64,000 nucleotides of DNA from Candidatus Adlerbacteria bacterium (GTDB lineage Bacteria > Patescibacteriota > Minisyncoccia > Phycocordibacterales > SBAW01): assembly GCA_029288895.1 (NCBI GenBank), contig JARIGK010000004.1, positions 175,866 to 239,865 on the forward strand. The letters are read 5' to 3'. A program made the position numbers and the translations under genes. Shown here one piece after another: positions 7,655 through 55,660 of this stretch (positions within the stretch are counted from its first letter, which is position 1; the number at the start of each line of letters is the position of its first letter). Below the pieces are notes generated by a model that was not told where the DNA came from, did no database searches, and was given only the letters and a program-made list of their open reading frames with translations.

Positions 7655-7709
7655 TTACTCCTAGTGCATACAACAGTAGTGAGCAGGTATACGCCATAGC
7701 TGGTAGACT

Positions 7710-8306
7710 ATGTACATGAATTGGCATGTTGCGCTCGCGGCCGTGGCTGCCATCATCAGTCTCTCTTCGCTTATCCCATATGTGCGCGACATTGTGCGCG
7801 GCACTACGCGTCCAAATACAATCACGTGGGGCTTATGGTTTTTTATTCAGGTGATAGCCATCGCTGCCCAGGTCCATGAAGGCGCTTCGTGGTCAATCGT
7901 GTTCGTCATCGTGGACGGAATAACTATTCTTGTGGTGCTTGGTTTCTCTATCGCAGGATATGGATATCGAGAGTGGAATATATTTGATGCATGCTGCGGT
8001 GTGTTGGGAGTTGTCGCAATTGTTGCGTGGCAAACGACAGGGGATGCAATACTCGCACTCATCTTTTCGATACTTGCCGATGGCCTTGCGGCTCTTCCGA
8101 CATTGCGCAAAGCATATACGGATGCGTGGTCAGAACATCCTTGGGGTTGGGCGCTGACTACTCTTGCGGCTACGCTAGGGTTAGCTTCCACCGCTCGCTA
8201 CAATCCAGCAAATATACTTTTCCCAGGCTATCTCATTGCAATTAATTTCCTGACCTTTGTATTCTCATTTCTTGGTAGAAAGGTTCAACCCAAACCGACA
8301 ATGTAA
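7710..8306 (+). CDS. Multi-TM membrane protein, paralog 1 of a 3-member family
   Basis: Shares IPYVRDIVRGTTRP...TW, FD..CGVL..VA...W and LPTLRKAY motifs with 15920..16516 and 16525..17151; two internal half-repeats. Confidence 0.55.
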   Translation: MYMNWHVALAAVAAIISLSSLIPYVRDIVRGTTRPNTITWGLWFFIQVIAIAAQVHEGASWSIVFVIVDGITILVVLGFSIAGYGYREWNIFDACCGVLGVVAIVAWQTTGDAILALIFSILADGLAALPTLRKAYTDAWSEHPWGWALTTLAATLGLASTARYNPANILFPGYLIAINFLTFVFSFLGRKVQPKPTM

Positions 8307-8378
8307 TCCCCACAGTGTGTTTGGGAGGGGAGAAGTCGTGTAATACTTACGAGTGAAGCATTTATTTTTGCACTCACT

Positions 8379-9017
8379 ATGGTAAATCAACAACTTCTCG
8401 ACTATATAAAACAGCAATTGGCCGCCGGTGTTCAGAAGAACGACCTTATGAAAGCGTTGGCCGCGGGCGGATGGAATGCGATTGACGTCGGTGAAGCGTT
8501 TGCGGCGCTTACTCCCGCTCCAGCGACTCCTCCTTCAGCCATGCCTGTGCAACCGGCTTCGACTCCGGCTCCGCAACCTGTCCAACCTGCAGCGCCTGCG
8601 CAACCAATGGCGCCGCACACATCTCCTATCGTGCCGCCAGCAGTCACTATTACGCCAAACCCAGTCTCGACACCGATGACGCCAGCTGCGCCTATGGCGC
8701 CCATGGCACCTACATCGCCGCAAGTGTCTGCTGCTGCGATGGTTGCATCACAACCTGCGGCAAAAAGTTCAAACGCAGGACTCATCGTGTTGATCATCAT
8801 TTTACTTTTGATCTTGGCCGCAGGCGCTGCTGTCATCTTTGTCCCATCCTTAAACAACGCACTGCTCAACATGCTTGTGCCGCCAGTTGCACAGACCAAC
8901 GATACGTCTATGCAGCAGCCGCAACCGGCACCTGCTTCAACAGATACCACTCAAGTAACGGCGACTGCAACGACCACGCCGACTGTTTCTGGTACCGCCT
9001 CCACTACAGTCCACTAG
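8379..9017 (+). CDS. Hypothetical Pro/Ala/Thr-rich membrane-anchored protein
   Basis: Small N-terminal domain, long PAPATPPS low-complexity linker, one TM helix (LIVLIIILLLILAAGAAVIFV) and a Thr-rich tail. Confidence 0.5.
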   Translation: MVNQQLLDYIKQQLAAGVQKNDLMKALAAGGWNAIDVGEAFAALTPAPATPPSAMPVQPASTPAPQPVQPAAPAQPMAPHTSPIVPPAVTITPNPVSTPMTPAAPMAPMAPTSPQVSAAAMVASQPAAKSSNAGLIVLIIILLLILAAGAAVIFVPSLNNALLNMLVPPVAQTNDTSMQQPQPAPASTDTTQVTATATTTPTVSGTASTTVH

Positions 9018-9045
9018 GTGTTTGACTTTTATTTGGATTTGTTAG

Positions 9046-10335
9046 ATGAATAACCCCATGCGTAAAGGGGGATACCTGCCACCGTCAGTCTCGCGCTGGA
9101 AAGACCCGTTTTTGTTGTGCGCCACGATTGTGGGGGCCTATTGGGCATTCTCGCGCTTGGCGATTTCGGACACCGTATTGGCTATGTGCATCGTTATTGT
9201 GTCCATTGCGGTGATGGGTGTGCTTGAAGCGTTCCGAACGCACGTGCCCGCACATACGCACTCGCTCAAACAATCAATGTCGCATGCGCTCGTCACATGG
9301 GCGGGAACACTCGCAGGGCTTGGTTTTGTATTGTTTTTGTGGGGAACACTCACGACGTACTCAAGCTCGTACTACCAACCCTTTTTTCAAGTATTGCCAT
9401 TCTTCCTCGCGGCGTCGATTGTTCTAAGTTTCTTCTACGCTATTGTTGCGTCAAAAGTGCTCGGGCTGTATACGCACGGCGACTATCAACTGGGGCAGTT
9501 GGTGCTTGGGCGCGAAGTTAACTGGAAAGGTGTGCGCGACGCATTACTTGTGTGGGTTATCCGCGGATTTTTCTTGCCGATAAATTTTTGTGAATTGGTT
9601 AACACAATCGATGTCTTCCGCGGCCATGGCCTCTTTTTCTTGCAAGGCCCGTGGATGTCTGTCGAATATTACGTGCTCTTAATTGTCTACGGTTTTATCA
9701 TTGCAGCCGTCACGCCTGGCTATGTGTTTGGTGCGCGCCTCTTTGGCACGCATACACGCGACGTGAGCCACTCGTGGTTTGCGTGGGTTGTGACTCTCAT
9801 CTGCTATGCGCCGCTTGAGCTCGCCGTGTTTAAAGGATGGTTTAACTACAACCCCACGGCAGCGACTCCCGTATGGAACCAGCCGTGGGTAGTACATTTT
9901 GCCAACGCGCCAGTTGTGTTGGAAACCATAGGCGGGCTCCTCGTGTTAGTGTCGCTCGTGCACTTGTGGGGCGAAGCGCAGTTTGGCCTCCGCTCGTCCA
10001 ACATAAGCAACCGCGGCATCATTACGACGGGTGCGTATCGCTACACCAAGCACCCGGTGTACCTCACCAAATGTGTGGGATGGTTTTTAATCTGGCTGCC
10101 GTTTCTTTCAGGCGCTTCGTTTGTCGACAGCATGCGCCTGACATTCCTCTTCTTGTGCATCTGTGCGATATACGCGCTGCGCGCGCTGGCCGAAGAAGAA
10201 CTTTTGAGCGCGGACAAAGACTACGTGGCATATGCGCTGTGGATGGATGAACATGCGTGGACGAAAAAAATAGGGGAGATATTCCCCATCTTCCGCTACT
10301 CGTGGCGTCTGGTGCAGTGGGAAAAAGTGAGGTAA
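9046..10335 (+). CDS. Polytopic membrane protein with a C-terminal ICMT/phospholipid-methyltransferase-family domain
   Basis: C-terminal TTGAYRYTKHPVYLTKCVGWFLIW fits the G-x-Y-x3-RHP-x-Y motif of the ICMT/PEMT family; large N-terminal multi-TM extension. Confidence 0.6.
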   Translation: MNNPMRKGGYLPPSVSRWKDPFLLCATIVGAYWAFSRLAISDTVLAMCIVIVSIAVMGVLEAFRTHVPAHTHSLKQSMSHALVTWAGTLAGLGFVLFLWGTLTTYSSSYYQPFFQVLPFFLAASIVLSFFYAIVASKVLGLYTHGDYQLGQLVLGREVNWKGVRDALLVWVIRGFFLPINFCELVNTIDVFRGHGLFFLQGPWMSVEYYVLLIVYGFIIAAVTPGYVFGARLFGTHTRDVSHSWFAWVVTLICYAPLELAVFKGWFNYNPTAATPVWNQPWVVHFANAPVVLETIGGLLVLVSLVHLWGEAQFGLRSSNISNRGIITTGAYRYTKHPVYLTKCVGWFLIWLPFLSGASFVDSMRLTFLFLCICAIYALRALAEEELLSADKDYVAYALWMDEHAWTKKIGEIFPIFRYSWRLVQWEKVR

Positions 10336-10348
10336 GTTGTAGGGTATC

Positions 10349-10424
10349 GCCGTTGTAGCTCAGTTGGTAGAGCAACGCCATGGTAAGGCGTAGGTCGGCA
10401 GTTCGATCCTGCCCAACGGCTCCA
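10349..10424 (+). tRNA. tRNA-Thr (GGT), CCA encoded
   Basis: GCCGTTG/CAACGGC acceptor, anticodon loop ATGGTAA, T-arm GGCAGTTCGATCCTGCC, T-CCA end. Confidence 0.85.
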
Positions 10425-10447
10425 GCTTCCAGAGATGGGAAGTGTAC

Positions 10448-10523
10448 GCCAGCGTAGCTCAGTTGGTAGAGCAGCGGTATCGTAAACCGCAGGTCGTCGG
10501 TTCAATCCCGACCGCTGGCTCCA
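10448..10523 (+). tRNA. tRNA-Thr (CGT), CCA encoded
   Basis: GCCAGCG/CGCTGGC acceptor, anticodon loop ATCGTAA, T-arm GTCGGTTCAATCCCGAC. Confidence 0.85.
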
Positions 10524-10530
10524 AAAAATA

Positions 10531-10556
10531 AAAAACCGCCTTATTCAGGCGGTGTA
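10531..10556. terminator. Rho-independent terminator for the minus-strand nudix gene; hairpin also follows the plus-strand tRNA-Thr pair (no T-run on that side)
   Basis: ACCGCC-ttattca-GGCGGT hairpin with A-run upstream (T-run on the minus strand); the stop codon of the minus-strand nudix gene lies in the loop. Confidence 0.6.
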
Positions 10557-11003
10557 TCCCAAAAACTCTCTATACAATTTGCGGTGGAGGCCGAAGAAAT
10601 CTGGCATTGCATCGACAAGGTCGATAGGGAATTCCTGAGTTTCAAAAAACTCATCTTCATCTTTACCTGGAAATTTTTTTCCAGATAGGTCCCGAAGACG
10701 GCAATACGGAAGACGTGTTTTGTAGAAATACTGAAGATGAGGATTCGCTCCGTATACGGTATACGGTTTACGGACCTCTTCGATGCATACTTCGGGGTCG
10801 CCTCGGTTGGCGAGCCAAAAGCCACCTTCTTCCCACAGTGCGCGAATCACGGCGTCGATTTCGGACTCGCCTTCGTGCATCCCTTCGCCGATAAATTTCC
10901 ACGCATTCTCCGACTTCTTCAGATCTTTGATGAGCAACAGCGTGTCGGGCTGGCGGCTATAGATGGCGAGCATCATAACCGGGAGCCCAAAGTTTGTGTG
11001 CAT
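10545..11003 (-). CDS. NUDIX hydrolase
   Basis: Nudix box GEGMHEGESEIDAVIRALWEEGG (G-x5-E-x7-R[AE]-x2-EE-x-G), 152 aa. Confidence 0.7.
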   Translation of the reverse strand: MHTNFGLPVMMLAIYSRQPDTLLLIKDLKKSENAWKFIGEGMHEGESEIDAVIRALWEEGGFWLANRGDPEVCIEEVRKPYTVYGANPHLQYFYKTRLPYCRLRDLSGKKFPGKDEDEFFETQEFPIDLVDAMPDFFGLHRKLYREFLGYTA

Positions 11004-11076
11004 GTTTCACCTCTGTGCGCAAAATAGCAGAGAAGCATAGAAAGTCAATACTGTGATACAGTAGTGGCACGAATCT

Positions 11077-11958
11077 ATGGCAGAGAAAGAAGAAATACAA
11101 AAACGGATTGCAGAAATAGAGGCAGCAATGAATGCTGCTGATTTTTGGGCCGTGCCTGCTAAAGCACAGGCGATGATTAAAGAGTTGCAGGATTTGAAAG
11201 CCGAAGCAGAAGGCGGCGGCAAGTACGACCGCGGCAACGCAATCATGATGATCGTCGCAGGTGCCGGCGGAGATGACGCAGAAGACTTTGCGCAGATGCT
11301 ACTCGAGATGTATCGCAAATTTAGCGAGAAAAAGGGCTGGGGTATGCGCGTGTTGCACAGCCACCCCAACGACCACGGCGGCTATCGCAACATTACTGTG
11401 GAAGTCGAAGGTAAGAGCGCCTACGGCACGCTCAAAAACGAGTACGGGGTGCATCGCTTGGTGCGTATCTCGCCATTTAATGCCTCGCAAAAACGGCAAA
11501 CATCATTTGTCTTGGTAGAAGTGCTGCCGGTTGTAGAAAAGGTCGGCGATTTTGAAGTGCCCGAACAAGAATTAGAAATTACCTTTGCCCGCTCGGGCGG
11601 CCCCGGCGGCCAAAACGTCAACAAACGCGAGACAGCAGTGCGCGTAGTGCATACACCGACGGGCATTTCGGCGCACGCCGATGGCGAGCGTTCGCAAAAT
11701 GCCAACCGCGAGAAAGCGCTTGCGATCGTGAAGGCAAAACTATTTCATCGACTGGAGACAGAGCGTAAAGAAACTATTGCAGAACTTTCAACCAATGCAC
11801 AAAAGATAGAATGGGGAAGCCAGATCCGCTCATATGTGCTGCATCCGTACAAACTTGTAAAAGATCACCGCACGGGTGTTGAGGTAGGGAACGCCGAAGG
11901 TGTGCTCGACGGCAACCTGGAACCCTTCATTGCCGCGTTTGACACAACCCAGAAATAG
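11077..11958 (+). CDS. prfB: Peptide chain release factor 2 (N-terminally short form)
   Basis: SPF tripeptide (RISPFNAS), GGQ motif ([11 protein letters not shown]) and conserved C-terminus. Only 293 aa, with just 73 bp upstream to the next gene, so domain 1 is genuinely shortened; no in-frame TGA frameshift site. Confidence 0.85.
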
Positions 11959-12018
11959 TCCTATTGTTTTATTTACGCACGACCCCTCGTGCAATAACCA
12001 CACTTCCGGGAGGAAGTA

Positions 12019-12336
12019 ATGAAGATCTTTTCACTCGTCGCCGCAGTTGCGGCAATTTCTGTACCAGCATTCGCCCAAAGCCATCGTTTTGATCCTGGTG
12101 GCAAAGTGGTCGACGCCCGGGCGGCAATGCGTTGTGGAGTGCCGCCGGATTTTGGCGAAGAACTCCACGGCAGCTTCTTCAGCTGTGGAGGAAGGCTTAT
12201 TTTTGTCCGCAATGCGTATTTGCTGGGCATCATAAAAGCCGATGATATTTTCCTCTGCGAAGTCGGCATTAATGCTGCTGGCGGGGAAGTCGCTGAGAAC
12301 TGCAGGCGGGAACGTACCGTCGCCACAAAAAAGTGA
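12019..12336 (+). CDS. Hypothetical small secreted protein
   Basis: Strong Shine-Dalgarno GGGAGGAAGTAATG, signal-peptide-like N-terminus MKIFSLVAAVAAISVPAFAQ, terminator hairpin right after the stop. Competes with an antisense ORF 11973..12359. Confidence 0.4.
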   Translation: MKIFSLVAAVAAISVPAFAQSHRFDPGGKVVDARAAMRCGVPPDFGEELHGSFFSCGGRLIFVRNAYLLGIIKADDIFLCEVGINAAGGEVAENCRRERTVATKK

Positions 12337-12345
12337 CCAATGAGA

Positions 12346-12377
12346 GGCCGCCCCAGCATAGGGCGGTCTTTTTCTTT
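12346..12377 (+). terminator. Rho-independent terminator
   Basis: GGCCGCCC-cagcata-GGGCGGTC followed by TTTTTCTTT. Confidence 0.5.
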
Positions 12378-12443
12378 ATGCAGGTATTAGATGAAGAACC
12401 CAGTTGCCGGGAGGGCAGAGAAAGGTACAATAGGAAAGTTGTT

Positions 12444-13124
12444 ATGATCTATTTCGACAGAGTCAGCAAGGTCTACGCTGACAACTCAATCGCATTGGAA
12501 GATGTTAGCTTCTCCGTTGAACCGGGCGAATTCATCTCCATCGTCGGCCACTCGGGTGCCGGCAAAACCACCCTCGTCAAAATGCTCTTAGCAGAAGAGA
12601 AGCCAACAGACGGCTCCGTCTTTTTTGAATCTATTAATGTGCACGAGGTGCCTTTGTCGCGCATCAACCACCTGCGCCGCAAGATAGGCACCGTCTTCCA
12701 AGACTTCCGCCTTCTTCCGCAAAAGACCGCGTACGAAAATATTGCATTCGCGATGGAGGCAGCAGGCCGCCACGAAGAGGAGATCCATTCCGATGTGCCG
12801 CACGTGCTCGACCTGGTTGACCTCACAGATAAAGCAAATAATTTTCCTGACGAACTTTCAGGCGGCGAACAGCAGCGTGTGGCTATCGCGCGCGCTATTG
12901 TCAATCAGCCTGACGTCATTATTGCCGACGAGCCCACAGGTAACTTGGACCCGGTCAACACCTTTGAAGTGGTGCAGATCCTCAAGAAAATCAATGACCT
13001 AGGCACTACTATTATCCTCACCACGCACAACAAAGGCGTTATCGACAGCTTAAAGAAGCGCGTTATTACTATGGACCGCGGCCGCATCGTCCGCGACGAC
13101 CGAGAAGGGAAATATATATTGTAA
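12444..13124 (+). CDS. ftsE: Cell division ATP-binding protein FtsE
   Basis: Walker A GHSGAGKTT, ABC signature LSGGEQQRVAIARA, Walker B IIADEPTGNLD; ~226 aa from the first ATG. Confidence 0.9.
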   Translation: MIYFDRVSKVYADNSIALEDVSFSVEPGEFISIVGHSGAGKTTLVKMLLAEEKPTDGSVFFESINVHEVPLSRINHLRRKIGTVFQDFRLLPQKTAYENIAFAMEAAGRHEEEIHSDVPHVLDLVDLTDKANNFPDELSGGEQQRVAIARAIVNQPDVIIADEPTGNLDPVNTFEVVQILKKINDLGTTIILTTHNKGVIDSLKKRVITMDRGRIVRDDREGKYIL

Positions 13125-13133
13125 AATTTGCCT

Positions 13134-14066
13134 ATGAACTGGACTACCGTTAAACGAATATTCCGCTCCGGCCTCCTCGATTTTTGGAGAAACGGGTTCG
13201 TCTCACTCGCATCAATTTTGGTGATGACGGTAACGCTGTTTGTCGTAGGTATGACGCTCTTTGCGGGCGTTATTTTGCAAACGGCATTGAATGATTTGCG
13301 CGATAAAGCGGACGTGAGCGTGTACTTCACGACCAATGCACCCGAAGACAAAATATTGGAATTGCAGAAGTCGGTAAATGCGCTGCCGCAAGTTGAAAGT
13401 ACGCAGTATGTGTCGGCCGACGACGCGCTCGCGAACTTCCGCGAACGCCACCAGAACGACCAGCTTACCCTGCAAGCACTCCAAGAACTTGGCGCAAACC
13501 CGCTCGGCGCTGTGCTTAACATCAAAGCAAAAGATATTTCGCAGTACGACGCTATCGCGCAGTTTTTGGAACAGCAGCAGGCACTGTCCACGGGCAACGC
13601 AAGTATCATCGACAAGATTAACTACTTCGACGCGCAGCACCGCCAGGCGCTTGAGCGTCTGCAGAGCATCACCGACTCGGCAGGGACGCTTGGCCTCGTG
13701 ATTATCCTTATCTTGGTTGCGGTCACGATTGCTATTTCATTTAACACGCTGCGTTTGGCAATTTACACCTCGCGCGAAGAGATCCAGGTGATGCGCTTGG
13801 TGGGGGCGGGCTCGTTCTATATCCGTGCACCGTTTATGGTGGAGGGCGTGCTGTACGGCCTCATTTCGGGGCTCGTGACATTGATCCTCTTCTACCCGCT
13901 GACATACTGGTTGGGGAGCGCAACGGCCGACTTCTTTGGCGGCATCAACGTCTTCTCGTACTACGTATCGCACTTCCTTCAATTCTTCGCTATTATAGTC
14001 GGGACGGGCGTTGTGCTTGGGGCGGCAGCCAGCTACCTGGCGGTGCGCCGATATTTGAAGATTTAA
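13134..14066 (+). CDS. ftsX: Cell division permease-like protein FtsX
   Basis: Follows ftsE by 9 nt; 4-TM FtsX topology with a large extracytoplasmic loop; first ATG at 13134 (the ORF track starts at TTG 13128). Confidence 0.85.
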   Translation: MNWTTVKRIFRSGLLDFWRNGFVSLASILVMTVTLFVVGMTLFAGVILQTALNDLRDKADVSVYFTTNAPEDKILELQKSVNALPQVESTQYVSADDALANFRERHQNDQLTLQALQELGANPLGAVLNIKAKDISQYDAIAQFLEQQQALSTGNASIIDKINYFDAQHRQALERLQSITDSAGTLGLVIILILVAVTIAISFNTLRLAIYTSREEIQVMRLVGAGSFYIRAPFMVEGVLYGLISGLVTLILFYPLTYWLGSATADFFGGINVFSYYVSHFLQFFAIIVGTGVVLGAAASYLAVRRYLKI

Positions 14067-14074
14067 ATTGCTAG

Positions 14075-15739
14075 ATGAAATTTCCTTTTTCTAAATCCGA
14101 AAGCTCGAGCGAGAATCCAAAATATATTTTCGTCGTCGGCGGTGTGATGTCGGGCGTTGGCAAAGGCGTCGCGTCATCATCCATCGGCAAAATTTTGAAA
14201 GCAAAGGGGTTTAAGGTCACCGCGATTAAAATCGACCCCTACATCAACGTGGACGCTGGCACCATGAACCCGACAGAACACGGCGAAGTGTTCGTGTTGG
14301 ACGATGGCTACGAGACCGACCAGGATATGGGTAACTACGAGCGCTTTTTGGATGAGTCGCTGCCGCAGATTAACTACATGACCACCGGCCGCGTGTACCA
14401 GGAAATAATCCGCCGCGAGCGCAATTTGGAGTATGGTGGCAAAAACGTGGAAGTGGTACCGGACGTGCCACTCGAAGTAATTCGCCGCATCAAGCGCGCG
14501 CAAGAAGAAGCGAAGGCAGACATTACGCTTGTGGAAGTGGGCGGCACGATAGGCGAGTACCAGAACATCATCTTCCTCGAAGCGGCGCGTATGCTCAAAC
14601 AAAAGCATCCAAAAGATGTGGCCGTCGTGATGGTGTCGTATGTACCCATTCCGGGCAACATCGGCGAGATGAAGACCAAGCCGACGCAGTATGCGGCGCG
14701 CTCGCTGAACTCTGTCGGCCTCCAGGCGGATGTGATTTTGGCACGCGCACAAGTAGCGCTCGACGAAAAGCGCAAAGAAAAAATCGCTATCTTCTGCAAC
14801 ATCCCGACCGAGCATGTGATTTCGGCACCCGATGTCCAGAGTATTTATGATGTGCCAGGTAATTACGAAGAAGACGGCCTAGGCGACATTTTGACGGACG
14901 TCCTTTCCTTGCCAAAGAAAAAGACAGACCTTTCGGAGTGGAATACGTTTGTACAAAAATCAAAGAAGGCAACACAAGAAGTTGAGATAGCAGTTGTGGG
15001 CAAATACTTCTCATCGGGAGAGTTCGTGCTTTCGGACGTATATATTTCGGTGCTCGAGGCAATCAAGACTGCGGCGTACCACCTCGACCTCAAACCAAAA
15101 ATTACGTACCTGTCGTCGCAGGATTTTGAATCAGGAAAAATGGAATTGTCCGAGCTCGATCGCTTTGGCGGCATCTTGGTGCCGGGCGGCTTTGGCTCAA
15201 CAGGCGTCGAGGGCAAAATAAAAGTGATCCAGTACGCACGTGAGAAGAAGATCCCATATTTTGGCATTTGCTATGGCATGCAGTTGGCGGTGATTGAGTA
15301 TGCGCGCCATGTTGCAGGTATGAAAGATGCACACACACGGGAAATTTCCAAAGACACCGCGCACCCAGTGATCGACATTATGGAATCGCAGAAAGATATT
15401 GTTGAGCAGGGGAACTTTGGCGGCACGATGCGGTTGGGTACGTACCCATGCGTCATCAGAGAGGGGACCGTGGCACACACAGTCTTTGGCACAACAGAAA
15501 TTTCCGAGCGCCACCGCCACCGCTACGAAGTAAACACCGACTATATCGAAGAGATAGAAAAAGCGGGCATGGTCTTTTCGGGCAAGTCACCAAACGGCGT
15601 ACTCATGGAAATCGTTGAGCTTCCGAAAGATGTGCACCCGTTCTTTATGGGTATCCAGTCGCACCCCGAATTCCTCTCGCGCCCACTTACTCCGCACCCG
15701 ATCTTCTCGGCGTTTATAAAGGCCGCAAGCAAAAAATAA
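14075..15739 (+). CDS. pyrG: CTP synthase
   Basis: 554 aa; N-terminal synthetase domain (KYIFVVGGVMSGVGKG) and C-terminal GATase with catalytic Cys (GICYGMQ). Confidence 0.95.
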   Translation: MKFPFSKSESSSENPKYIFVVGGVMSGVGKGVASSSIGKILKAKGFKVTAIKIDPYINVDAGTMNPTEHGEVFVLDDGYETDQDMGNYERFLDESLPQINYMTTGRVYQEIIRRERNLEYGGKNVEVVPDVPLEVIRRIKRAQEEAKADITLVEVGGTIGEYQNIIFLEAARMLKQKHPKDVAVVMVSYVPIPGNIGEMKTKPTQYAARSLNSVGLQADVILARAQVALDEKRKEKIAIFCNIPTEHVISAPDVQSIYDVPGNYEEDGLGDILTDVLSLPKKKTDLSEWNTFVQKSKKATQEVEIAVVGKYFSSGEFVLSDVYISVLEAIKTAAYHLDLKPKITYLSSQDFESGKMELSELDRFGGILVPGGFGSTGVEGKIKVIQYAREKKIPYFGICYGMQLAVIEYARHVAGMKDAHTREISKDTAHPVIDIMESQKDIVEQGNFGGTMRLGTYPCVIREGTVAHTVFGTTEISERHRHRYEVNTDYIEEIEKAGMVFSGKSPNGVLMEIVELPKDVHPFFMGIQSHPEFLSRPLTPHPIFSAFIKAASKK

Positions 15740-15782: not shown

Positions 15783-15853
15783 TGCCAGATCGTCTAATGG
15801 TAGGACAACGGACTCTGAATCCGTTTATCTTGGTTCGAATCCAAGTCTGGCAG
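15783..15853 (+). tRNA. tRNA-Gln (CTG)
   Basis: U1-A72 acceptor TGCCAGA/TCTGGCA, anticodon stem ACGGA/TCCGT with loop CTCTGAA, T-arm CTTGGTTCGAATCCAAG. Confidence 0.8.
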
Positions 15854-15919
15854 CAGCTTAGTTTAGTATCGGACGACCAAGAGGGGTCAGGAGCTAACAA
15901 CTAATGTACTATTCCTAGT

Positions 15920-16516
15920 ATGGAATATAAATTTGTACTTGGCACTCTTGCGGCGCTTTTTGCCATAGGTAGCGCATATCTCTATATTCGGGATATATTC
16001 CGCGGTAATACAAAACCTCATACCTACACATGGATTATATGGTCCATTGTTACCGCCATTGGGTTTCTTGGACAATGGTATACCGGTGGAGGAGCAGGCT
16101 CATGGGCCACAGGGGTGACAGCTTGTTACTGTTTCATCATTCTGTTTCTTTGCTTCAAATATGGAACAAGCGATATTACGAAGTTTGATCTACTGTGTTT
16201 GGTTCTGGCAATTACCTCTATTGTCCCGTGGCTCTTCTCCCACAATATTTTGTGGTCTGTAATTTTAGCAACAATAACTGATCTACTTGGCTTTCTTCCT
16301 ACAATACGAAAAACATGGCGCGCTCCGCGTAGTGAATCACTCGGGTCACTCTGGTTCGACGTTTTTAAACACGGGCTTTCTGTTGCGTCACTTCAAACGT
16401 ATTCACTTACTACATGGTTGTATCCAGCCGCTATTATCATTGCAAAGATGATGCAGGTGGTCGAAATATCGTATTTACGGTTTCTACGAAAGGAACATAA
16501 GGCGGCTCAAGTATAA
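15920..16516 (+). CDS. Multi-TM membrane protein, paralog 2
   Basis: YLYIRDIFRGNTKPHTYTW..., FDLLCLVLAITSIVPW, LPTIRKTWRAP motifs shared with 7710..8306; AT-richer than its neighbours. Confidence 0.55.
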   Translation: MEYKFVLGTLAALFAIGSAYLYIRDIFRGNTKPHTYTWIIWSIVTAIGFLGQWYTGGGAGSWATGVTACYCFIILFLCFKYGTSDITKFDLLCLVLAITSIVPWLFSHNILWSVILATITDLLGFLPTIRKTWRAPRSESLGSLWFDVFKHGLSVASLQTYSLTTWLYPAAIIIAKMMQVVEISYLRFLRKEHKAAQV

Positions 16517-16524
16517 TTATCTAT

Positions 16525-17151
16525 ATGAGCGAAGTATTTTTGGGTTTACCGATTGCACACTGGCTCGTCCTTCTTTCCATCGGCATCAGTTCAACAGGAG
16601 GCATAACCTACCTCCTCAACATGTTTCGAGGAAAATCCAAACCCAACTTGGTTTCGTGGGGTCTGTGGGGCTTGGCCCCACTTATTGCAACAGGAGCGGC
16701 TATTTCGGCTCATGCCGATTTGTGGGGCACTGCACGTGTTTTTATTTCTGGTTTTGTACCGTTCGTTATTTTTATGTTCGGTCTGTTTTTGAAGCAAAGT
16801 TACTGGAAACTCACTCGCTTCGACTTCTTCTGTGGAGTACTTTCCGTAATTGCTCTAATTGCATGGCTTATTGCTCATGCTCCCGTTGCGGCAATTTTGT
16901 TCGCGATAGCTGCAGACTTGTTTGCCTCAGTGCCGACTCTAGTAAAAGGATGGCAAAGCCCTCATACCGAAACGGCAACCGTTTTTCTTACAAGCCTCAT
17001 ATCATCTCTCATCACAATCCCTGCTATCCCAGTTTGGAATCTTGAAAACACCGCATTTCAAGCGTATCTGATTATTGTAAATCTGGCTTTGTTTGGAGTC
17101 ATAACTTTAGGTAAACTCCTAAAGCCAACACAAAGTGTTTCGACTCAATAG
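16525..17151 (+). CDS. Multi-TM membrane protein, paralog 3 (tandem with paralog 2)
   Basis: LNMFRGKSKPNLVSWGLW, FDFFCGVLSVIALIAW, VPTLVKGWQSPHTE motifs. Confidence 0.55.
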   Translation: MSEVFLGLPIAHWLVLLSIGISSTGGITYLLNMFRGKSKPNLVSWGLWGLAPLIATGAAISAHADLWGTARVFISGFVPFVIFMFGLFLKQSYWKLTRFDFFCGVLSVIALIAWLIAHAPVAAILFAIAADLFASVPTLVKGWQSPHTETATVFLTSLISSLITIPAIPVWNLENTAFQAYLIIVNLALFGVITLGKLLKPTQSVSTQ

Positions 17152-17239
17152 TTCCGAACCCATCTAACCATTGCAGCCAGTAAAATTTTTGCAGTGAAAT
17201 AAGGATATTTTGGATAGGATGATTGGATGATCAGAACTG
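17150..17239 (+). repeat. Intergenic repeat element A, copy 1 (supplies the start codon of the downstream gene)
   Basis: AGTTCCGAACCCATCTAACCATTGCAGCCAGTAAAATTTTTGCAGTGAAATAAGGATATTTTGGATAGGATGATTGGATGATCAGAACTG; near-identical copies at 18314, 19177 and a partial copy at 17738. Confidence 0.75.
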
Positions 17240-17685
17240 CTATACTTCCTGTAATGGAAAAGAGAATACCGGCACTTACGCCAGAGTTAAAAATCACTGA
17301 CTTTAAGAAGAGTCTAAAATTTTATACTACACTCGCTGGTTTTGATATTGAGTACGAACGTCCTGAAGACGAATTCGCAATGCTCAGCAAAGGAGATGCA
17401 TGGATTATGATTGAATCCATTAGCGATAAAAGTCGCATAATGAAAGCAGGGGCTCTCGAGTATCCTTTTGGGCGCGGCATGCATTTTCAGATACAGGTTG
17501 AAGATGTGCAGTCGCTCTACGATACTTTTAAAAGCAATTCTCATCCTATCTTCTCCGAAATGGAAGATAAGTGGTATCGAACAGGCGAGACCGAGGGAGG
17601 GAATAGGCAATTTTGGGTACAAGACCCTGACGGCTACATGCTGCGCTTCTATCAGGACTTAGGTTCTAGGCCTTTTCAGAAGTAG
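17227..17685 (+). CDS. VOC-family protein (glyoxalase / bleomycin-resistance-like)
   Basis: 152 aa with beta-alpha-beta-beta-beta-like modules (KITDFKKSLKFYTTLAGFDI..., WVQDPDGYMLRF); start codon lies inside repeat A copy 1. Confidence 0.6.
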   Translation: MIRTAILPVMEKRIPALTPELKITDFKKSLKFYTTLAGFDIEYERPEDEFAMLSKGDAWIMIESISDKSRIMKAGALEYPFGRGMHFQIQVEDVQSLYDTFKSNSHPIFSEMEDKWYRTGETEGGNRQFWVQDPDGYMLRFYQDLGSRPFQK

Positions 17686-17691
17686 CAGTCC

Positions 17692-17765
17692 AGTTCCGAA
17701 CGACACTAAAATAATCAGTATGGATTTGTATCAAATTGATTCCGAACCCATCTAACCATTGCAGC
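17692..17765 (+). repeat. Repeat element A, truncated copy 2: an isolated AGTTCCGAAC half, then ...TTCCGAACCCATCTAACCATTGCAGC fused to the next gene start
   Basis: AGTTCCGAAC at 17692-17701 directly after the VOC stop; the first 26 bp of element A at 17740-17765 are followed immediately by ATG 17767. Confidence 0.6.
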
Positions 17766-17766
17766 A

Positions 17767-18288
17767 ATGAAAAAGATTTATATAACGGGAGTTTCAGGGA
17801 CAGGAAAAACTACCATTGCACATGAATTAGAAAAGAGGGGCTACCTTGTTGTGAGTATTGATGAGGTGTCAGGGCTGTGCTCATGGACGCATCAAGAGAC
17901 AGGAGAAAAACATGGCGGCAAAGATACGCCCCTCACTAAAGAATTTGTTGATGCCCATGATTGGATTGTAGATATCGAACACTTGAATAAACTTCTCGAT
18001 AAAGATGTCGAAGTGGCGTTTGTACTAGGTATGGCTGGTAATCAGAATGAGTTCTTGCCATCATTCGATAAAATCTTATTGCTAGAATGTAACCCCGAAA
18101 CCTTCAGTGCGAGAATTGACGCACGAACAGACAATGATTTTGGTAAAGACCCACAAATCAAAGCTCAAATTCTCAACCGCTATAAAACTTACGGGGAAGA
18201 GATGCGTTCGCGAGGTGCTATTGTTGTAAATACCGATAGGCCTATTGATGCGGTGGTCAAAGATGTTATTGCTCAAGCCAATGCATAA
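17767..18288 (+). CDS. P-loop NTPase, small kinase-like (adenylate/shikimate-kinase fold)
   Basis: Walker A ITGVSGTGKTTIAHEL at the extreme N-terminus; 173 aa. Confidence 0.6.
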   Translation: MKKIYITGVSGTGKTTIAHELEKRGYLVVSIDEVSGLCSWTHQETGEKHGGKDTPLTKEFVDAHDWIVDIEHLNKLLDKDVEVAFVLGMAGNQNEFLPSFDKILLLECNPETFSARIDARTDNDFGKDPQIKAQILNRYKTYGEEMRSRGAIVVNTDRPIDAVVKDVIAQANA

Positions 18289-18313
18289 AAACCTTTGCTT
18301 CTTGCCAGTACGG

Positions 18314-18403
18314 AGTTCTGAACTTATCTAACTCGGGCAGCCAGTAAAATTTTTGCAGTGAAATAAGGATATTTTGGATAGGATGATTGGATTATCAGAA
18401 CTG
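18314..18403 (+). repeat. Repeat element A, copy 3 (internal ATG mutated to ATT)
   Basis: AGTTCTGAACTTATCTAACTCGGGCAGCCAGTAAAATTTTTGCAGTGAAATAAGGATATTTTGGATAGGATGATTGGATTATCAGAACTG. Confidence 0.75.
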
Positions 18404-18474
18404 ATTGATATTAGTTAGTCAGTCTTGTATAACTCCCTACAGCCATAAGTTCCATTTTTTCGAGAGGATGACAG

Positions 18475-19086
18475 ATGAACGATCTTGTTAAAGGTCTCGT
18501 TCGCAAGGAAAATATGTTGCAAGAGCTTCTTTCGTTGCCTCGCGACCAACTGGGCAAGGCGATCCAGAGAATCCAGGCCGAGGCTGAAGCGCAGAGTGCC
18601 TTCAAGTTGGGACAGCTCGTTCGAACTTGCAATTCTCCGGGCATCTCACTCGTGGGTGGCCTCAGCGAACTTCCGCACGACCACAATGACCCAAAGCAGC
18701 ATTCCAATACGCGTGTCGTGGGCTGGAATTCTTTTGGTGAAATTGAAGTCGCCACTTCTTACGGGAGTAACCCACATTGTTGCAAGTGGACGCATAGTGA
18801 AAGCAAGATGATTCCTTGCGAGGACGCCGACTGGGCTACTCAAAGTCTTCGCAAACGCGACGAAAAAGTCTCCTACGTATGGGAGCTTCGCGGATTTTGG
18901 GAGGCTGACAATCATGTCGGTGAAGTGGTGCCGGCGATTCTTGTTGTTCCTCACATTAAGGAAGGAGATTGGATCGTACGCTATGCCAAGCCGCATAAGC
19001 GACACGACTGGATCATCCGCGTCATCAACGAGAAACAGATGCTCCCGTCTCTCCCCGACAACGAGTACCCCGCCTCCGACGAATAG
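18475..19086 (+). CDS. Hypothetical protein
   Basis: 203-aa ORF downstream of repeat A copy 3; no recognisable motif. Confidence 0.5.
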   Translation: MNDLVKGLVRKENMLQELLSLPRDQLGKAIQRIQAEAEAQSAFKLGQLVRTCNSPGISLVGGLSELPHDHNDPKQHSNTRVVGWNSFGEIEVATSYGSNPHCCKWTHSESKMIPCEDADWATQSLRKRDEKVSYVWELRGFWEADNHVGEVVPAILVVPHIKEGDWIVRYAKPHKRHDWIIRVINEKQMLPSLPDNEYPASDE

Positions 19087-19093
19087 TCGTGGG

Positions 19094-19137
19094 CGTTTTT
19101 CTTTTCCTTTGTTCTGAAGCACCTATGTTAAAATTTC
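19094..19137 (+). repeat. Repeat element B, copy 1 (T-rich tract + TTGTTCTGAAGCACCTATGTTAAAATTTC)
   Basis: Shares a ~30-bp identical core with 20012..20054; contains an extended -10-like TGTTAAAAT. Confidence 0.6.
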
Positions 19138-19176
19138 GGTATTGGAAGCTCAGTTGTTGTTTTGAGCCACGAAACT

Positions 19177-19265
19177 GTTCCGAACCCATCTCACCATTGC
19201 AGCCAGTAAAATTTTTGTTAAGAAATAAGGGTATTTTGGATAGGTAAATTGGATGATTAGAACTT
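19177..19265 (+). repeat. Repeat element A, copy 4 (its internal ATG opens a 19-codon mini-ORF, MIRTLERFNLLNAEILFVW)
   Basis: TGTTCCGAACCCATCTCACCATTGCAGCCAGTAAAATTTTTGTTAAGAAATAAGGGTATTTTGGATAGGTAAATTGGATGATTAGAACTT. Confidence 0.7.
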
Positions 19266-19401
19266 TAGAACGATTTAATCTATTAAATGCAGAAATTCTT
19301 TTTGTTTGGTAGCCTGTCAGAGGAGTAATCTTGCTCCAGCTCCGAGCCCTATAGCGGAATGCTGGGCTCATATTGCAGTGGAATACTGCAAGGAGAGAAC
19401 A

Positions 19402-19980
19402 ATGAAAGTCTCAACCGAAGCGCAGATTGCGCAGTTCATTCAAGAGTATCCCATCCTCGAGAAGCCAATTGAGATATTGCGCAGGAGAGCGAGCGGCGGG
19501 AATAATGTCGCCTTGCGTATTCACATCGCGGTCAAACGCATGGATACGCTGATGCCTTACTTTGTGGGGAACCCGACCAAACCACGTGCGTGGATTCCAG
19601 GTGAGGGTATCAACAAGGGTCTCGACGGCACTGAAGAAGCGCGAGCATATGTCTATTGGCCAATGGCGCACGAGCCGCTCCACTTTCTTTTTGAGTGGTC
19701 TCCAGGAGATGCCCATAAACTCGGGAACCTGCTGCTCGGTATCAAACCCGAAGAAATCGGGCACGTGGTCATCGAGACCTGCTATGTCTGGCATGAGCGC
19801 AGGAAGGATATCACATGGGAAAGTATTGTTGGGCGCACTCCCATGCGGGCGATAGAGGCTACGTTCGTAGTCTTGTTACCGCCTAAGAGCGGGACGGTGG
19901 CGGAGCTGTTCGAAAAAGCTAAACGGGAACATCCTGAACTGAAAACACCCAAGGAGCACGTTGAGTTTCTGAATCGTTAG
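19402..19980 (+). CDS. Hypothetical protein
   Basis: Shine-Dalgarno AAGGAGAG 6 nt before ATG 19402; 192 aa; strong terminator follows. Confidence 0.55.
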   Translation: MKVSTEAQIAQFIQEYPILEKPIEILRRRASGGNNVALRIHIAVKRMDTLMPYFVGNPTKPRAWIPGEGINKGLDGTEEARAYVYWPMAHEPLHFLFEWSPGDAHKLGNLLLGIKPEEIGHVVIETCYVWHERRKDITWESIVGRTPMRAIEATFVVLLPPKSGTVAELFEKAKREHPELKTPKEHVEFLNR

Positions 19981-19988
19981 GACATCGC

Positions 19989-20012
19989 GGGCCGCCCTTC
20001 TTTTGGGCGGCC
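19989..20012 (+). terminator. Rho-independent terminator
   Basis: GGGCCGCCC-ttctttt-GGGCGGCC followed by TTTTCTTTTT (the T-run continues into element B). Confidence 0.65.
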
Positions 20013-20054
20013 TTTTCTTTTTAATTTGTTCTGAAGCACCTATGTTAAAATTTC
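20012..20054 (+). repeat. Repeat element B, copy 2
   Basis: CTTTTCTTTTTAATTTGTTCTGAAGCACCTATGTTAAAATTTC, 17 bp before ATG 20072. Confidence 0.6.
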
Positions 20055-20071
20055 AGTTAAGAGCTTAAAGT

Positions 20072-20587
20072 ATGAGAGCCAAAACTGTACGTGTGAATGA
20101 CAGAATGCAGAAAGGGTACAGCTACACCCTGAGCGAGCCCGTGGGCAAAAATTTTGACCCGCGTTTCCAGCCCGACCTTACGCCAAAACAAATGCTCGCA
20201 CTTGGTGTGTTTGGCGGCGTCTACATGCGCGACTGCAGAAAAGAATTTCCAAAGGATTGGTTTGCGAAAGCCAAGTTTCAAACGAAAGGAGTGTATGAAC
20301 AAGATCCAACAATTAATTTTTTTAAGGTGAAGGCGAGTCAGTCGCTTAGCGAATGGAAGAGAAAAGGGTGGATATATAAAGACGACCCGCGCGGATGGTT
20401 CCAATGGTACTGCCGCTACTATATGGGGCGCCGCGGGGAGGATGACGAGCGGCAGATCAAACGCTGGGTTGCTATCCGTCGCCACATTGCGCAAATAGTA
20501 AAGAACTGCCGCAAGGGAGATTTTTCATGCCACTCAAAACAGCGGCAAGCTGTTCTTCACTGGGCGTACGACAGCAGGACGTTATAA
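20072..20587 (+). CDS. Hypothetical protein (Trp/Arg-rich)
   Basis: 171-aa ORF after element B copy 2; no recognisable motif. Confidence 0.5.
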   Translation: MRAKTVRVNDRMQKGYSYTLSEPVGKNFDPRFQPDLTPKQMLALGVFGGVYMRDCRKEFPKDWFAKAKFQTKGVYEQDPTINFFKVKASQSLSEWKRKGWIYKDDPRGWFQWYCRYYMGRRGEDDERQIKRWVAIRRHIAQIVKNCRKGDFSCHSKQRQAVLHWAYDSRTL

Positions 20588-20594
20588 TTGAGGT

Positions 20595-20996
20595 ATGAAA
20601 ACAGCGACGCAATATTTCCATTACAAAAAACCAACATGGGCGCCGCCGTCGTGGCTCTTTGGTCCCGTATGGACCGTGCTCTACATTCTTATCGCGATTT
20701 CGTTTGGATACGTTGGCTACTTGTGGTTTACGAATGCAATCACACCCCAAATACTTCTCCCGTTTGTACTCAACCTCATATTCAATTTTCTGTTTACTCC
20801 AATCCAATTTCGGTTGCGCAATTTTACGCTCGCTGCCGTCGATATCATACTGGTTTGGACAACCCTTGTATGGGCGCTGGTAACTATTTTGCCTATTGCA
20901 TCGTGGGTCGCGTACATTAACTTGCCATACCTTGCGTGGGTGAGCTTCGCCACCGTCTTGCAGTTCACGATTACTGCGATGAATAGAAAGGCGTAG
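20595..20996 (+). CDS. TspO/MBR family (tryptophan-rich sensory protein)
   Basis: KPTWAPPSWLFGPVWTVLYILIAISFGYV matches the TspO signature; 133 aa, 5 TM. Confidence 0.75.
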   Translation: MKTATQYFHYKKPTWAPPSWLFGPVWTVLYILIAISFGYVGYLWFTNAITPQILLPFVLNLIFNFLFTPIQFRLRNFTLAAVDIILVWTTLVWALVTILPIASWVAYINLPYLAWVSFATVLQFTITAMNRKA

Positions 20997-21063: not shown

Positions 21064-21411
21064 ATGAACAAATATTTCGTTACATTCTCGATGCCGGCTG
21101 CGACTATCCAAAACTGGATGGCGACTGTCGACGAAGAGACTCGCAAAACTCAGACAGAAGACATGATGCAAAAGTGGGAGCAGTGGATGGCCGAGCATGC
21201 AGCGCAGGTTGTCGATAAAGGCATGCCGCTTGGCCGAACAAAGCGCATCACAAGCCAGGGCATTACTGATGTTAAGAACGAACTCAACTTTTACATCATT
21301 GTCGAGGCCGAAAGCCACGACGCTGCGGCAGAGCTACTTCGCACGCATCCGCAGTTAGCTATCATCCCCGACACCTATATCGAGGTGATGACTACAACGG
21401 GCCCGCAGTGA
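21064..21411 (+). CDS. Hypothetical small protein (possibly YciI-like alpha/beta fold)
   Basis: 115 aa; weak resemblance (YIIVEAESHDAAAELLRTHP); not recognised confidently. Confidence 0.45.
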   Translation: MNKYFVTFSMPAATIQNWMATVDEETRKTQTEDMMQKWEQWMAEHAAQVVDKGMPLGRTKRITSQGITDVKNELNFYIIVEAESHDAAAELLRTHPQLAIIPDTYIEVMTTTGPQ

Positions 21412-36481: not shown

Positions 36482-37150
36482 ATGAACATCCAACATCTAC
36501 TAACCTTCAAGCAGCAGCGAGTGCTTGATGCGGTGCGTGAATATATTAATGAGGAAGATAGGTCGCCTACGCTCGAGCAATTGCGTGCAACGCTCGGCTT
36601 TTCGTCACTGCGCACCGTAACCCAGTATTTGGACATCTTGGAGCGGAAGGGCTACATCGTCCGCCGCAAAAATGCTGCGCGTAATATCGAACTGCGCAAC
36701 GTCGATGGTGCGTGGGGGACAGTCTCTATCCCTGTTATTGCCAACGTAGGCTGCGACGACCTTTCTGTTTTTGCACAAAATTCAAACTCGGCTGACGAGT
36801 TTTTGGAAGTCGACAAGCGCATTGTCGATGAAGAGGAAGGCGATATTGTGGCGGTGCGCGCCATCGGCGACAGTATGAATGACGCCGGCATTAACACTGG
36901 CGACTACGTGCTTATTCGCTTTACCAACGACGTGCGTGATGGCGACCGTGTGGCTGCAATCGTCAACGACATGGTGACGGTCAAACGTTTGGAGCGCCGC
37001 GACGGCATGACCATCCTGTGGCCGCAGTCTAAAGACCCGAAATTCAAACCCATCATTTTGAAGGATGATTTTAAAATCGCCGGCAAAGTGCTCTGCGTGA
37101 TCCCAAGCAACCAGATGGAAATGACAGAGGTTGTACCGCTTGAGGATTAA
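36482..37150 (+). CDS. lexA: LexA repressor (S24 peptidase)
   Basis: N-terminal wHTH, Ala-Gly cleavage region, catalytic Ser in GDSM and Lys in the C-terminal domain. Confidence 0.85.
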   Translation: MNIQHLLTFKQQRVLDAVREYINEEDRSPTLEQLRATLGFSSLRTVTQYLDILERKGYIVRRKNAARNIELRNVDGAWGTVSIPVIANVGCDDLSVFAQNSNSADEFLEVDKRIVDEEEGDIVAVRAIGDSMNDAGINTGDYVLIRFTNDVRDGDRVAAIVNDMVTVKRLERRDGMTILWPQSKDPKFKPIILKDDFKIAGKVLCVIPSNQMEMTEVVPLED

Positions 37151-55570: not shown

Positions 55571-55660
55571 GGAGGCGTCGCATAGTGGTCTAGTGCACCG
55601 CCTTGGAAAGGCGGCATCGGGGAAACCTGATCGAGAGTTCGAATCTCTCCGCCTCCGCCA
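55571..55660 (+). tRNA. tRNA-Ser (GGA), long variable arm, CCA encoded
   Basis: GGAGGCG/CGCCTCC acceptor, anticodon stem CCGCC/GGCGG with loop TTGGAAA, variable arm ~18 nt, T-arm GAGAGTTCGAATCTCTC. Confidence 0.8.

Follow-up and report, generated by a model that had tools for sequence, protein, structure and literature searches.

The DNA between pyrG and the hlyD-acrB genes of a Candidatus Adlerbacteria genome contains intergenic repeats of a single orientation that lie downstream of a tRNA-Gln gene and coincide with the boundaries of small gene modules found in other genomes. The interval belongs to a 64-kb stretch of the source genome (the window). Its genes are all on the plus strand, in the order tRNA-Gln, TM1, TM2, VOC, kinase, hyp5, hyp6, hyp7, tspO and a YCII-like gene, with hlyD-acrB next. 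We propose that the interval is a tRNA-Gln-anchored array of exchangeable gene modules with edges at an oriented site, arising by cassette recombination; we judge the case for this reading to be evenly balanced. Its more specific form is tentative and, in our view, rather unlikely: a dedicated integron analogue of the candidate phyla radiation (CPR) in Paceibacterota, in which a mimic (~31 nt) of the tRNA-Gln 3' end would be the site for a trans-acting recombinase that captures, shuffles and exchanges single-gene cassettes. A first-pass annotation had described the island as a possible cassette locus; its observation is confirmed and its interpretation as a whole partly supported, and the tie of the array to the 3' end of tRNA-Gln is an addition to it.

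Two conserved intergenic elements recur in the island, as the first-pass annotation had noticed. Element A is present as three 90-nt copies, a solo copy and a stub, and element B as two copies, where shuffled sequence gives an expectation of 0 matches. All copies are on the plus strand in intergenic spacers between 17.1 and 20.1 kb, and BLAST and nhmmer found no further copy of either in the 64-kb window. The core of A1 (17150..17239; core 17150-17180) overlaps the TAG stop codon of TM2, and the 3' part of this copy supplies a Shine-Dalgarno (SD)-like GGATAGG and the ATG that starts the VOC open reading frame (ORF). At 17692..17701 lies a 10-nt stub (AGTTCCGAAC) equal to the start of a core, with 36 nt of unrelated sequence after it; the site may be an empty spacer or a scar of recombination. 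The solo core A2 (17738..17766; 29 nt, the 5' module) ends 0 nt before the kinase ATG. A3 (18314..18403; 90 nt) is chimeric, and A4 (19176..19265), whose core is 94% identical to that of A1, has a 19-codon mini-ORF beginning at the conserved ATG. The three 90-nt copies (17150, 18314, 19176) share 87-91% identity. Of the seven occurrences of the octamer GTTCYGAA in 64 kb, six fall in the spacers of the island, all six on the plus strand and with both B copies among them.

The conserved unit is a core of ~31 nt at the 5' end of A, GTTCYGAAC..ATCTAAC..GCAGCCAG, in which GTTC and CAG are 27 nt apart in all cores compared by hand. Six full A copies from three genomes consist of this core, a variable centre of ~45 nt and a 3' arm, ATTGGATGATCAGAAC, which is an inverted, imperfect copy of the core's start. 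A thus reads as an imperfect palindrome over its whole length, with two stems of 7 bp; the share of cells that pair is 89% at the true register and 20-45% when the register is slid. In four of the six full copies the 3' arm contains GGAKAGG, which is SD-like, together with an ATG (ATGATCAGAACT). The core of A3 is closest to that of another locus, L081 (81%), and in the 3' part A3 matches A1 at 98% identity. Between the two full A copies of locus L093 identity is 91%, and with the copies of the window it is 74-84%. These relationships point to exchange inside element A and to homogenisation within genomes. Rfam gave no match on A or B at E<=5, its only match being the tRNA. On inspection no dif/Xer-like dyad was seen in the core, and a LexA box was rejected on the arrangement GTTC-N-GAAC, the usual LexA box being GAAC-N4-GTTC. 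A LexA homologue (LexA_DNA_bind plus Peptidase_S24) is encoded in the window at 36482-37150.

The core belongs to a repeat family with members in at least 12 further contigs of Paceibacterota. The family extends beyond this genome and is not a private promoter duplication, and the recurrence of the element in other genomes supports the cassette-like reading of the first-pass annotation. A degenerate pattern for the 5' part of A found L081, a metagenome Adlerbacteria contig with a full-length, gap-free A 0.8 kb downstream of tRNA-Gln, and L009, which has the 5' module alone. L093 carries two full A copies and two solo cores, and has a similar compositional patchiness. The largest array was reached through a kinase homologue (81% identical) in L088 (GCA_043780835.1, JAYWCB010000012.1), where 16 copies of a ~30-40-nt repeat, TAAAAAGGTTCCAACGTCGTACCAAACACCCAGT, occupy 8.2 kb (6741-14968) at spacings of 171-1119 nt, 2.3 kb downstream of tRNA-Gln(TTG), compared with 4-5 copies in the window. 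The array holds about 13 small genes, with one core in each spacer between genes for GNAT, kinase, CYTH, NADAR, NUDIX and RAYT-like proteins and hypotheticals. The cores keep a single orientation, even around three minus-strand genes. As a rule they begin at a stop codon, and many of them reach to within a few bases of the ATG that follows; none was found outside 6.7-15 kb of the fetched contig. A hidden Markov model (HMM) of the L088 repeat, searched against 1.36 Mb (E 1e-4 to 1e-8), detected intergenic copies also in L004, L005, L009, L018, L063 (three copies), L068, L086 and L090. The cores of L086 (GGTTCTAACATCGTCTAAGACGCGCAGCCAGTTT) and L009 (AGTTCCAACATCGTACCAGACGGCCAGCCAGTTT) bridge the L088 type and the window type (AGTTCTGAACTTATCTAACTCGGGCAGCCAGTAAA). 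The core is shared across genomes whose PyrG proteins are only 60-70% identical, which argues for a functional site rather than a decaying scar.

Several other matches were set aside. Those in the metagenome contigs L082 and L083 are due to chance. Scans of viral contigs with the A core pattern and with the B pattern gave 0 matches each. The L088-type core pattern gave more than 120 (IMG/VR, L094-L173 among them) through the 20-mer GTTCCAACNTCGTMCCARAC. Nearly all of these fall in one conserved high-GC phage coding region, which by hand translation of the reverse strand reads ...VVWDDVGTFDG...GYPCQPFS and which we take to be a C5 DNA methyltransferase of high-GC prophages. Because all but a few lie in this one coding family, they were rejected as relatives of the core and regarded as a single chance match, a warning that short degenerate patterns can match one abundant coding family. 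A different intergenic repeat family is present at L060:1075-7505, where seven copies of CGCCATTATTCAATCCCAACCCCCATCGCTTCGG adjoin a hairpin GTTAGAT..ATCTAACGGGGCAGGCAGG; it has the stretch ATCTAAC..GGGCAG.CAG in common with A3 of the window.

Relatives of the window conserve the surroundings of the interval, not its content. The window PyrG (14075-15739) shares 85% identity with its counterpart in Candidatus Adlerbacteria RIFOXYC1_FULL_48_26, and the 80 best genome loci all come from Patescibacteria or Paceibacterota metagenome-assembled genomes (MAGs), which points to an uncultured, Adlerbacteria-like CPR bacterium as the source. The genes ftsE-ftsX-pyrG with an upstream tRNA cluster are syntenic across relatives. 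The closest relative with both flanks, L084 (PyrG 92%), retains ftsE-ftsX-pyrG and hlyD-acrB (63% and 79% amino-acid identity). In its 4.1-kb interior an inverted tRNA-Gln is accompanied by five genes (GIY-YIG, HAD, DKNYY, DUF1697 and one other), none of which is related to the interior genes of the window; variation in this interval is what the first-pass annotation had proposed to look for in a cassette locus. In L086 and L087 (PyrG 87-88%) the interval differs again. L084 and L085, from different samples, have identical PyrG proteins, yet differ beside the inverted tRNA-Gln, where L084 has a 78-aa GIY-YIG gene before a shortened HAD gene (199 aa vs 258 aa in L085). Small GIY-YIG genes near tRNA-Gln also occur in L081 and L087. 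Between ftsE and ftsX, L086:5995-8900 (PyrG 88%) holds a TnpB-like (HTH_OrfB_IS605) gene, a Cas1 gene and at least eight repeats at intervals of about 72 nt.

Entire modules are found again among other genes, with their edges at the repeats, and here too the cassette-like view gained ground. The block A3-hyp5-B1-A4 of the window (18315-19266) aligns with L093 (9840-10796) at 84% DNA identity, within which the hyp5 homologue, in its A-hyp5-B-A block, is 88% identical. The homology begins with the first base of A3 and ends with the last base of A4, and there is none beyond. The genes around the L093 block are unrelated to those of the window: upstream they encode a Ser-hydrolase-like protein and two others of 184 and 344 aa, and downstream sigma-70-like and ParB_N-like proteins. 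The only L093 protein with a match in the window is hyp5. Cores flank the kinase ORF on both sides in the window, in L088 (81% amino-acid identity) and in L092 (80%), with different neighbours each time. Homology among the three is limited to the ORF, and in L088 and L092 a core likewise stands just upstream of the kinase start codon. The homologues of the kinase in L089, L090 and L091 lack flanking cores, so the kinase is not always a cassette. The layout is integron-like, with co-oriented repeats 3' of small unrelated ORFs and cores within 0-25 nt of stop codons.

The array is linked to one tRNA. In nine loci (the window, L081, L009, L004, L005, L086, L018, L063 and L088) the cores lie 0.5-5.3 kb downstream of tRNA-Gln (CTG or TTG) and are co-oriented with it, even where the tRNA is inverted relative to pyrG. 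The exceptions are L068, whose cores are downstream of tRNA-Met, and L090 and L093, which have no tRNA in the fetched stretch. An HMM of the window-type core matches 21 of 62 tRNA-Gln genes and 0 of 127 other tRNAs, weakly (at most 10.3 bits), and pairwise alignments of cores with tRNA 3' ends score better than shuffles (p 0.0002-0.05). The last five bases of the core follow the acceptor end of tRNA-Gln in the same genome (GGCAG, GCCAG or CCCAG), and the end of the core in L009 is identical to the tRNA trailer CAGCCAGTTT. In length the core exceeds the tRNA 3'-end segment by 5 nt.

The same tRNA bears traces of other integration events. L010 has, besides an intact tRNA-Gln(CTG) gene, two incomplete copies of it a short way downstream: 12081-12125, which extends from the anticodon arm to the 3' end and begins 68 nt after the original, and 13418-13441, a copy of the 3' end 1.38 kb away with 83% identity. 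They are the signature of integration at tRNA-Gln. In L063 a 500-aa large serine recombinase (12175-13677, minus strand) overlaps tRNA-Gln(TTG) at its 3' end, with true tRNA 3' duplicates at 16967 and 17863, and in L088 a recombinase remnant lies near tRNA-Gln. In this group tRNA-Gln is an integration hotspot. L063 also has two copies of a ~210-nt composite (16770-16995 and 17659-17892) made of a core, a long hairpin, a AGTCCGGGGGACT hairpin and a tail like the tRNA-Gln 3' end. Its alignment fold has 13 compensatory pairs; the composite could represent a structured RNA resembling a tRNA, or else form the right end of serine-recombinase elements. L068:11740-11915 holds a comparable tRNA-like unit, situated after tRNA-Gln. 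A LOOT RNA (14303-14411; RF03000, 66 bits, above gathering) is also present in L063, inside the island that is integrated at tRNA-Gln(TTG), and adjoins the large serine recombinase.

We suggest the following mechanism. The pyrG-hlyD interval would be a flexible region built from small gene modules and anchored at tRNA-Gln. The modules are separated by the oriented core, which would be related to the 3' end and trailer of tRNA-Gln and in Adlerbacteria is embedded in the 90-nt imperfect palindrome A. They would be gained, lost and exchanged between genomes as units with edges at cores, most likely through site-specific recombination by a recombinase encoded elsewhere in the genome. The logic would resemble that of integrons, with an att-like site in place of attC. 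B would travel with hyp5 as a terminator-plus-promoter module and would also serve hyp7, and the 3' part of A would add an SD sequence and an ATG; both may carry expression signals in addition. The sequences themselves show the repeat family with its orientation and linkage to tRNA-Gln, the shared modules whose boundaries coincide with repeats, the chimeric copies and the foreign composition of four genes; recombination at the cores, and the enzyme that would perform it, are what we infer here.

Several results weigh against this proposal. No recombinase, transposase or RAYT domain was found by Pfam in the ORFs tested across the 64 kb, and tblastn queries for large serine recombinases, RAYT and TnpB had no match in the window. 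No recombinase family recurs beside core-bearing loci in a search for recurrent neighbours. Neither an excision circle nor an empty site was observed, nor any strain-level polymorphism of cassettes between identical flanks. The core has, by inspection, no obvious dyad symmetry of the kind typical of simple tyrosine or serine recombinase sites. L088-type cores have no significant similarity to tRNA-Gln, the arrays of L088 and L093 do not start at a tRNA (L093 has none in 15 kb), and cores are present at only about 9 of the 62 tRNA-Gln loci examined. Finally, alignment folds of the A palindrome contain essentially no compensatory changes, so that the A hairpin is only plausible and unproven; its RNA fold z-scores are weak (-1.6 to +0.5).

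The alternative that survives best, though we regard it as unlikely, is that the repeats are elements of the repetitive extragenic palindrome (REP) or REPIN type, the core being a REP singlet and A a REP doublet hairpin. They would be spread by a HUH transposase of the REP-associated tyrosine transposase (RAYT) type or be kept as structural or terminator elements, and would accumulate in dispensable, gene-poor flexible regions, with module sharing due to ordinary homologous recombination or transformation. The imperfect palindrome of A with its two stems, the existence of solo 5' arms and the homogenisation of copies within a genome all suit such elements, as does the RAYT-like Y1 transposase gene inside the L088 array (11906-12688). 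This gene is flanked by same-orientation cores and adjoins a remnant of a GNAT 3' end (12748-12854), and its product matches NF047646 with E 5e-17 (below cutoff) vs 1e-5 for IS200. A homologue with 49% identity is encoded at L068:13560-14350, 1.9 kb from tRNA-Gln. Because the L068 gene is flanked not by cores but by other, inverted repeats, AGGGGACAGGCACATTTATTTT / AAAATAAATGTGCCTGTCCCTTT (GGGACAGGCACATTTATTTT), the L088 gene is probably cargo or an independent insertion. Related AATATTGTCCCTG motifs are present in L068 at 11940 and 12600, in an apparent REPtron that has no relation to the cores. No RAYT was found in the window, and the copies there are clustered in 2.1 kb, with none in the other 59 kb; those of L088 are clustered likewise. 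All copies have one orientation, unlike the inverted REP pairs that flank RAYTs, and their exact placement at stop codons and specificity for tRNA-Gln are not features of REPs. A miniature inverted-repeat transposable element was also considered and rejected: an 8-nt sequence like a terminal inverted repeat is present (AGTTCYGA/TCAGAACT), but there is no target-site duplication at any copy and the copies are not dispersed.

Slightly less likely again is that the cores are passive scars. They would be decayed att sites, that is, displaced tRNA-Gln 3' ends, left by successive integrations, at tRNA-Gln, of integrase-bearing islands whose recombinases were later deleted, as in tycheposons or Islander-type tDNA islands, and no dedicated cassette system would be involved. 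The serine recombinase abutting tRNA-Gln(TTG) in L063 with its true 3' duplicates, the recombinase remnant of L088, the partial tRNA copies of L010 and the specific resemblance of the core to tRNA-Gln are all in keeping with this explanation. There is also a precedent in Prochlorococcus, where partial tRNAs are scattered through tRNA-linked islands (bioRxiv 10.1101/2020.12.28.424599). An integrase beside the target tRNA, as sought in the Islander approach, is absent from the window and present in L063. Neutral scars would be expected to decay, whereas the core has its own consensus, longer by 5 nt than the tRNA 3' end and kept across the 60-70% range of PyrG identity. The modules are single genes of 0.2-1.1 kb, the 16 tightly packed copies of L088 abut stop and start codons, and the L063 cores are distinct from the genuine att duplicates of the same locus.

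A third possibility, duplication of regulatory units, we consider improbable. A and B would be local copies of a promoter, operator or 5' leader under which the small genes are regulated together, with GTTCYGAA as the operator, and would have no role in mobility. B1 (19087..19140) combines a terminator T-tract, GTTCTGAAG and an extended -10-like TGTTAAAAT; B2 (20009-20057), the likely hyp7 promoter by prediction, is joined to an intrinsic terminator hairpin (19989-20013), which was the only call at the A and B elements in a terminator scan. The B copies measure 49 nt (19092-19140 and 20009-20057) and are exactly identical over 30 nt (19108-19137 = 20025-20054). B follows hyp5 both in the window and in L093, and B2 before the window hyp7 resembles the native sequence upstream of hyp7 in L001. 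We read B as a terminator-promoter module, one copy of which would belong to the hyp5 module. The octamer common to A and B, and the SD-like sequence and ATG of A, which supply the VOC start codon, would also be explained by a regulatory function. A sigma-70 scan, however, called no promoter in A or in B, solo cores abut ATGs and leave no room for one, and the core bounds unrelated genes in other genomes and loci. The first-pass annotation had placed a repeat 5' of each gene, but that assignment was arbitrary: the core stands at the upstream stop codon or immediately behind it, which is also where attC sites lie. Promoter shuffling, which it had also raised, is not favoured as the main role, since the L088 cores hold their orientation around minus-strand genes. 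Regulatory duplication moreover leaves the variable interval and the link to tRNA-Gln unexplained.

A remnant of a classical integron, that is, a cluster of attC sites lacking an integrase (CALIN), is very improbable, in line with the first-pass annotation: the co-oriented repeats after small, mostly co-directional accessory genes, the 90-nt palindromic A with two nested stems and its perfect inverse-core-like ATCTAAC would agree with one, but a regular-expression search of both strands for RYYYAAC...GTTRRRY pairs 40-130 nt apart found 0 in 15-21.5 kb (four in the whole window, all elsewhere), the 3' partner in A is ATTGGAT and lacks the GTT, the polarity of the outer stem is reversed, with GTT outside, the family is made up mostly of solo repeats of 30 nt, which are unable to fold, Rfam gave no match, and neither IntI nor Phage_integrase was matched by the window ORFs tested. 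A clustered regularly interspaced short palindromic repeat (CRISPR) array was likewise rejected, as the spacing is 0.05-1.2 kb and the spacers are protein-coding genes, vs spacers of 25-50 nt in CRISPR.

The genes of the interval differ in composition and distribution. The upstream anchor, tRNA-Gln(CTG) (15783..15854), was identified by ARAGORN and by Rfam (tRNA, 66 bits). It is followed by TM1 (15920-16516) and TM2 (16525-17151), which encode multi-pass membrane proteins and form the first module after the tRNA. They had been described as tandem paralogues, and they are distant ones, with 23% identity (E 9e-18). Neither has a match in Pfam or NCBIfam; a homologue with 33% identity exists in L028. 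For the next two genes Pfam agrees with the first-pass annotation. The VOC gene (17227..17685) encodes a glyoxalase-bleomycin-resistance-like protein (PF00903, E 2.6e-8; NCBIfam matches weak). A second VOC/glyoxalase gene, with 66% DNA identity to a gene in L089, is present in the window at 55688-56143 (PF00903/PF06983), directly after tRNA-Ser(GGA) (55571-55660). The kinase (17767..18288) is a small P-loop protein of the AAA_18 family, which is widespread in Paceibacterota; it gave the single, weak result of a PADLOC defence-system scan, against VakA.

The three hypothetical genes have no family match in Pfam and NCBIfam searches, and as such the first-pass annotation described them correctly. 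hyp5 (18475..19086) is a rare protein (8 clusters in 5.8 billion), modelled as a helical hairpin with SH3/Tudor-like barrels (pLDDT 78); a fold search gave weak Tudor/SH3-like matches only (E>=2e-3, TM<=0.3). hyp6 (19402..19980) is very rare, with 5 clusters in 1.84 billion representatives. hyp7 (20072-20587, 171 aa) does not suit the description of an exotic cassette gene, as it has homologues with 66-80% identity in five other loci (L001, L010, L087, L019 and L026). It adjoins tspO (20595-20996) in the window (20072-20996), in L010 (14040-14920) and in L026 (10458-11821); in L001 and L087 hyp7 is present and tspO has no match. hyp7-tspO is a widely conserved pair in Paceibacterota, not orphan or exotic cassette cargo. 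hyp7, tspO and the YCII-like gene (21064-21411) have a wide distribution, yet they are missing from the pyrG-hlyD interval of the closest relative.

The interval had been presented as AT-rich throughout, which holds for 15.75-18.5 kb (GC 0.39-0.46) and not for the rest. GC content at third codon positions is 0.38 in TM1, 0.41 in TM2, 0.44 in the VOC gene and 0.36 in the kinase gene, vs 0.57-0.63 in pyrG, hyp5, hyp6 and hyp7. The first four genes are therefore foreign in composition.

The genomes of CPR bacteria are tiny, and the ways in which these organisms acquire flexible genes are poorly known. If correct, the array proposed here would offer a testable route of gene flux in CPR, the exchange of single-gene modules beside tRNA-Gln, and possibly a second, independent invention of the integron principle. 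The core motif can serve as a search handle for flexible gene pools in thousands of Paceibacterota MAGs. Full-text literature searches of limited scope found no published description of arrays of this kind.

The array can be compared with several known systems. REP/REPIN elements with their RAYT have in common with it short intergenic repeats, a doublet-like hairpin (A, ~90 nt), singlets, and a RAYT-like gene in one array (L088). They differ in that the copies here are clustered in one orientation and tied to tRNA-Gln and to module boundaries, and in that the RAYT-like gene has no inverted cores. The pdif modules of Acinetobacter plasmids are likewise small gene modules bounded by short conserved XerC/D sites, with the recombinase encoded elsewhere. 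Their sites, however, contain an 11-6-11 dyad and occur in alternating orientations, whereas the cores are direct repeats throughout and lack a dyad of that type.

tRNA-anchored islands (Islander; the Prochlorococcus tycheposon, bioRxiv 10.1101/2020.12.28.424599) also present a variable region beside a tRNA gene in a small streamlined genome, scattered direct repeats that resemble the tRNA 3' end, and conserved flanks around a differing interior, and serine recombinases target the same tRNA in genomes related to ours. In contrast to those islands, each module here is one gene and carries nothing for integration or replication, the repeat follows a consensus of its own and is not a true tRNA fragment, up to 16 copies occur in 8 kb, and no integrase lies in or near the window array.

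Sedentary chromosomal integrons and CALINs are set apart by R''/R' (RYYYAAC/GTTRRRY) cores, absent from the array, by the form of the site and, in the case of integrons, by the integrase IntI, which was not found in the window ORFs tested and which CALINs lack as well. The conserved unit here is non-palindromic and ~31 nt long, only the Adlerbacteria A is a 90-nt palindrome, with a stem polarity different from attC, the site is related to the tRNA-Gln 3' end, and the host is a CPR bacterium. The likeness is nonetheless extensive: (i) co-oriented, genome-specific and homogenised repeats lie between small, mostly promoterless and unrelated accessory genes; (ii) the repeat starts at or just after a stop codon; (iii) some cassettes are reversed or empty; (iv) VOC, GNAT, NUDIX and small-kinase genes are typical cargo; and (v) the same cassette is found in different arrays.

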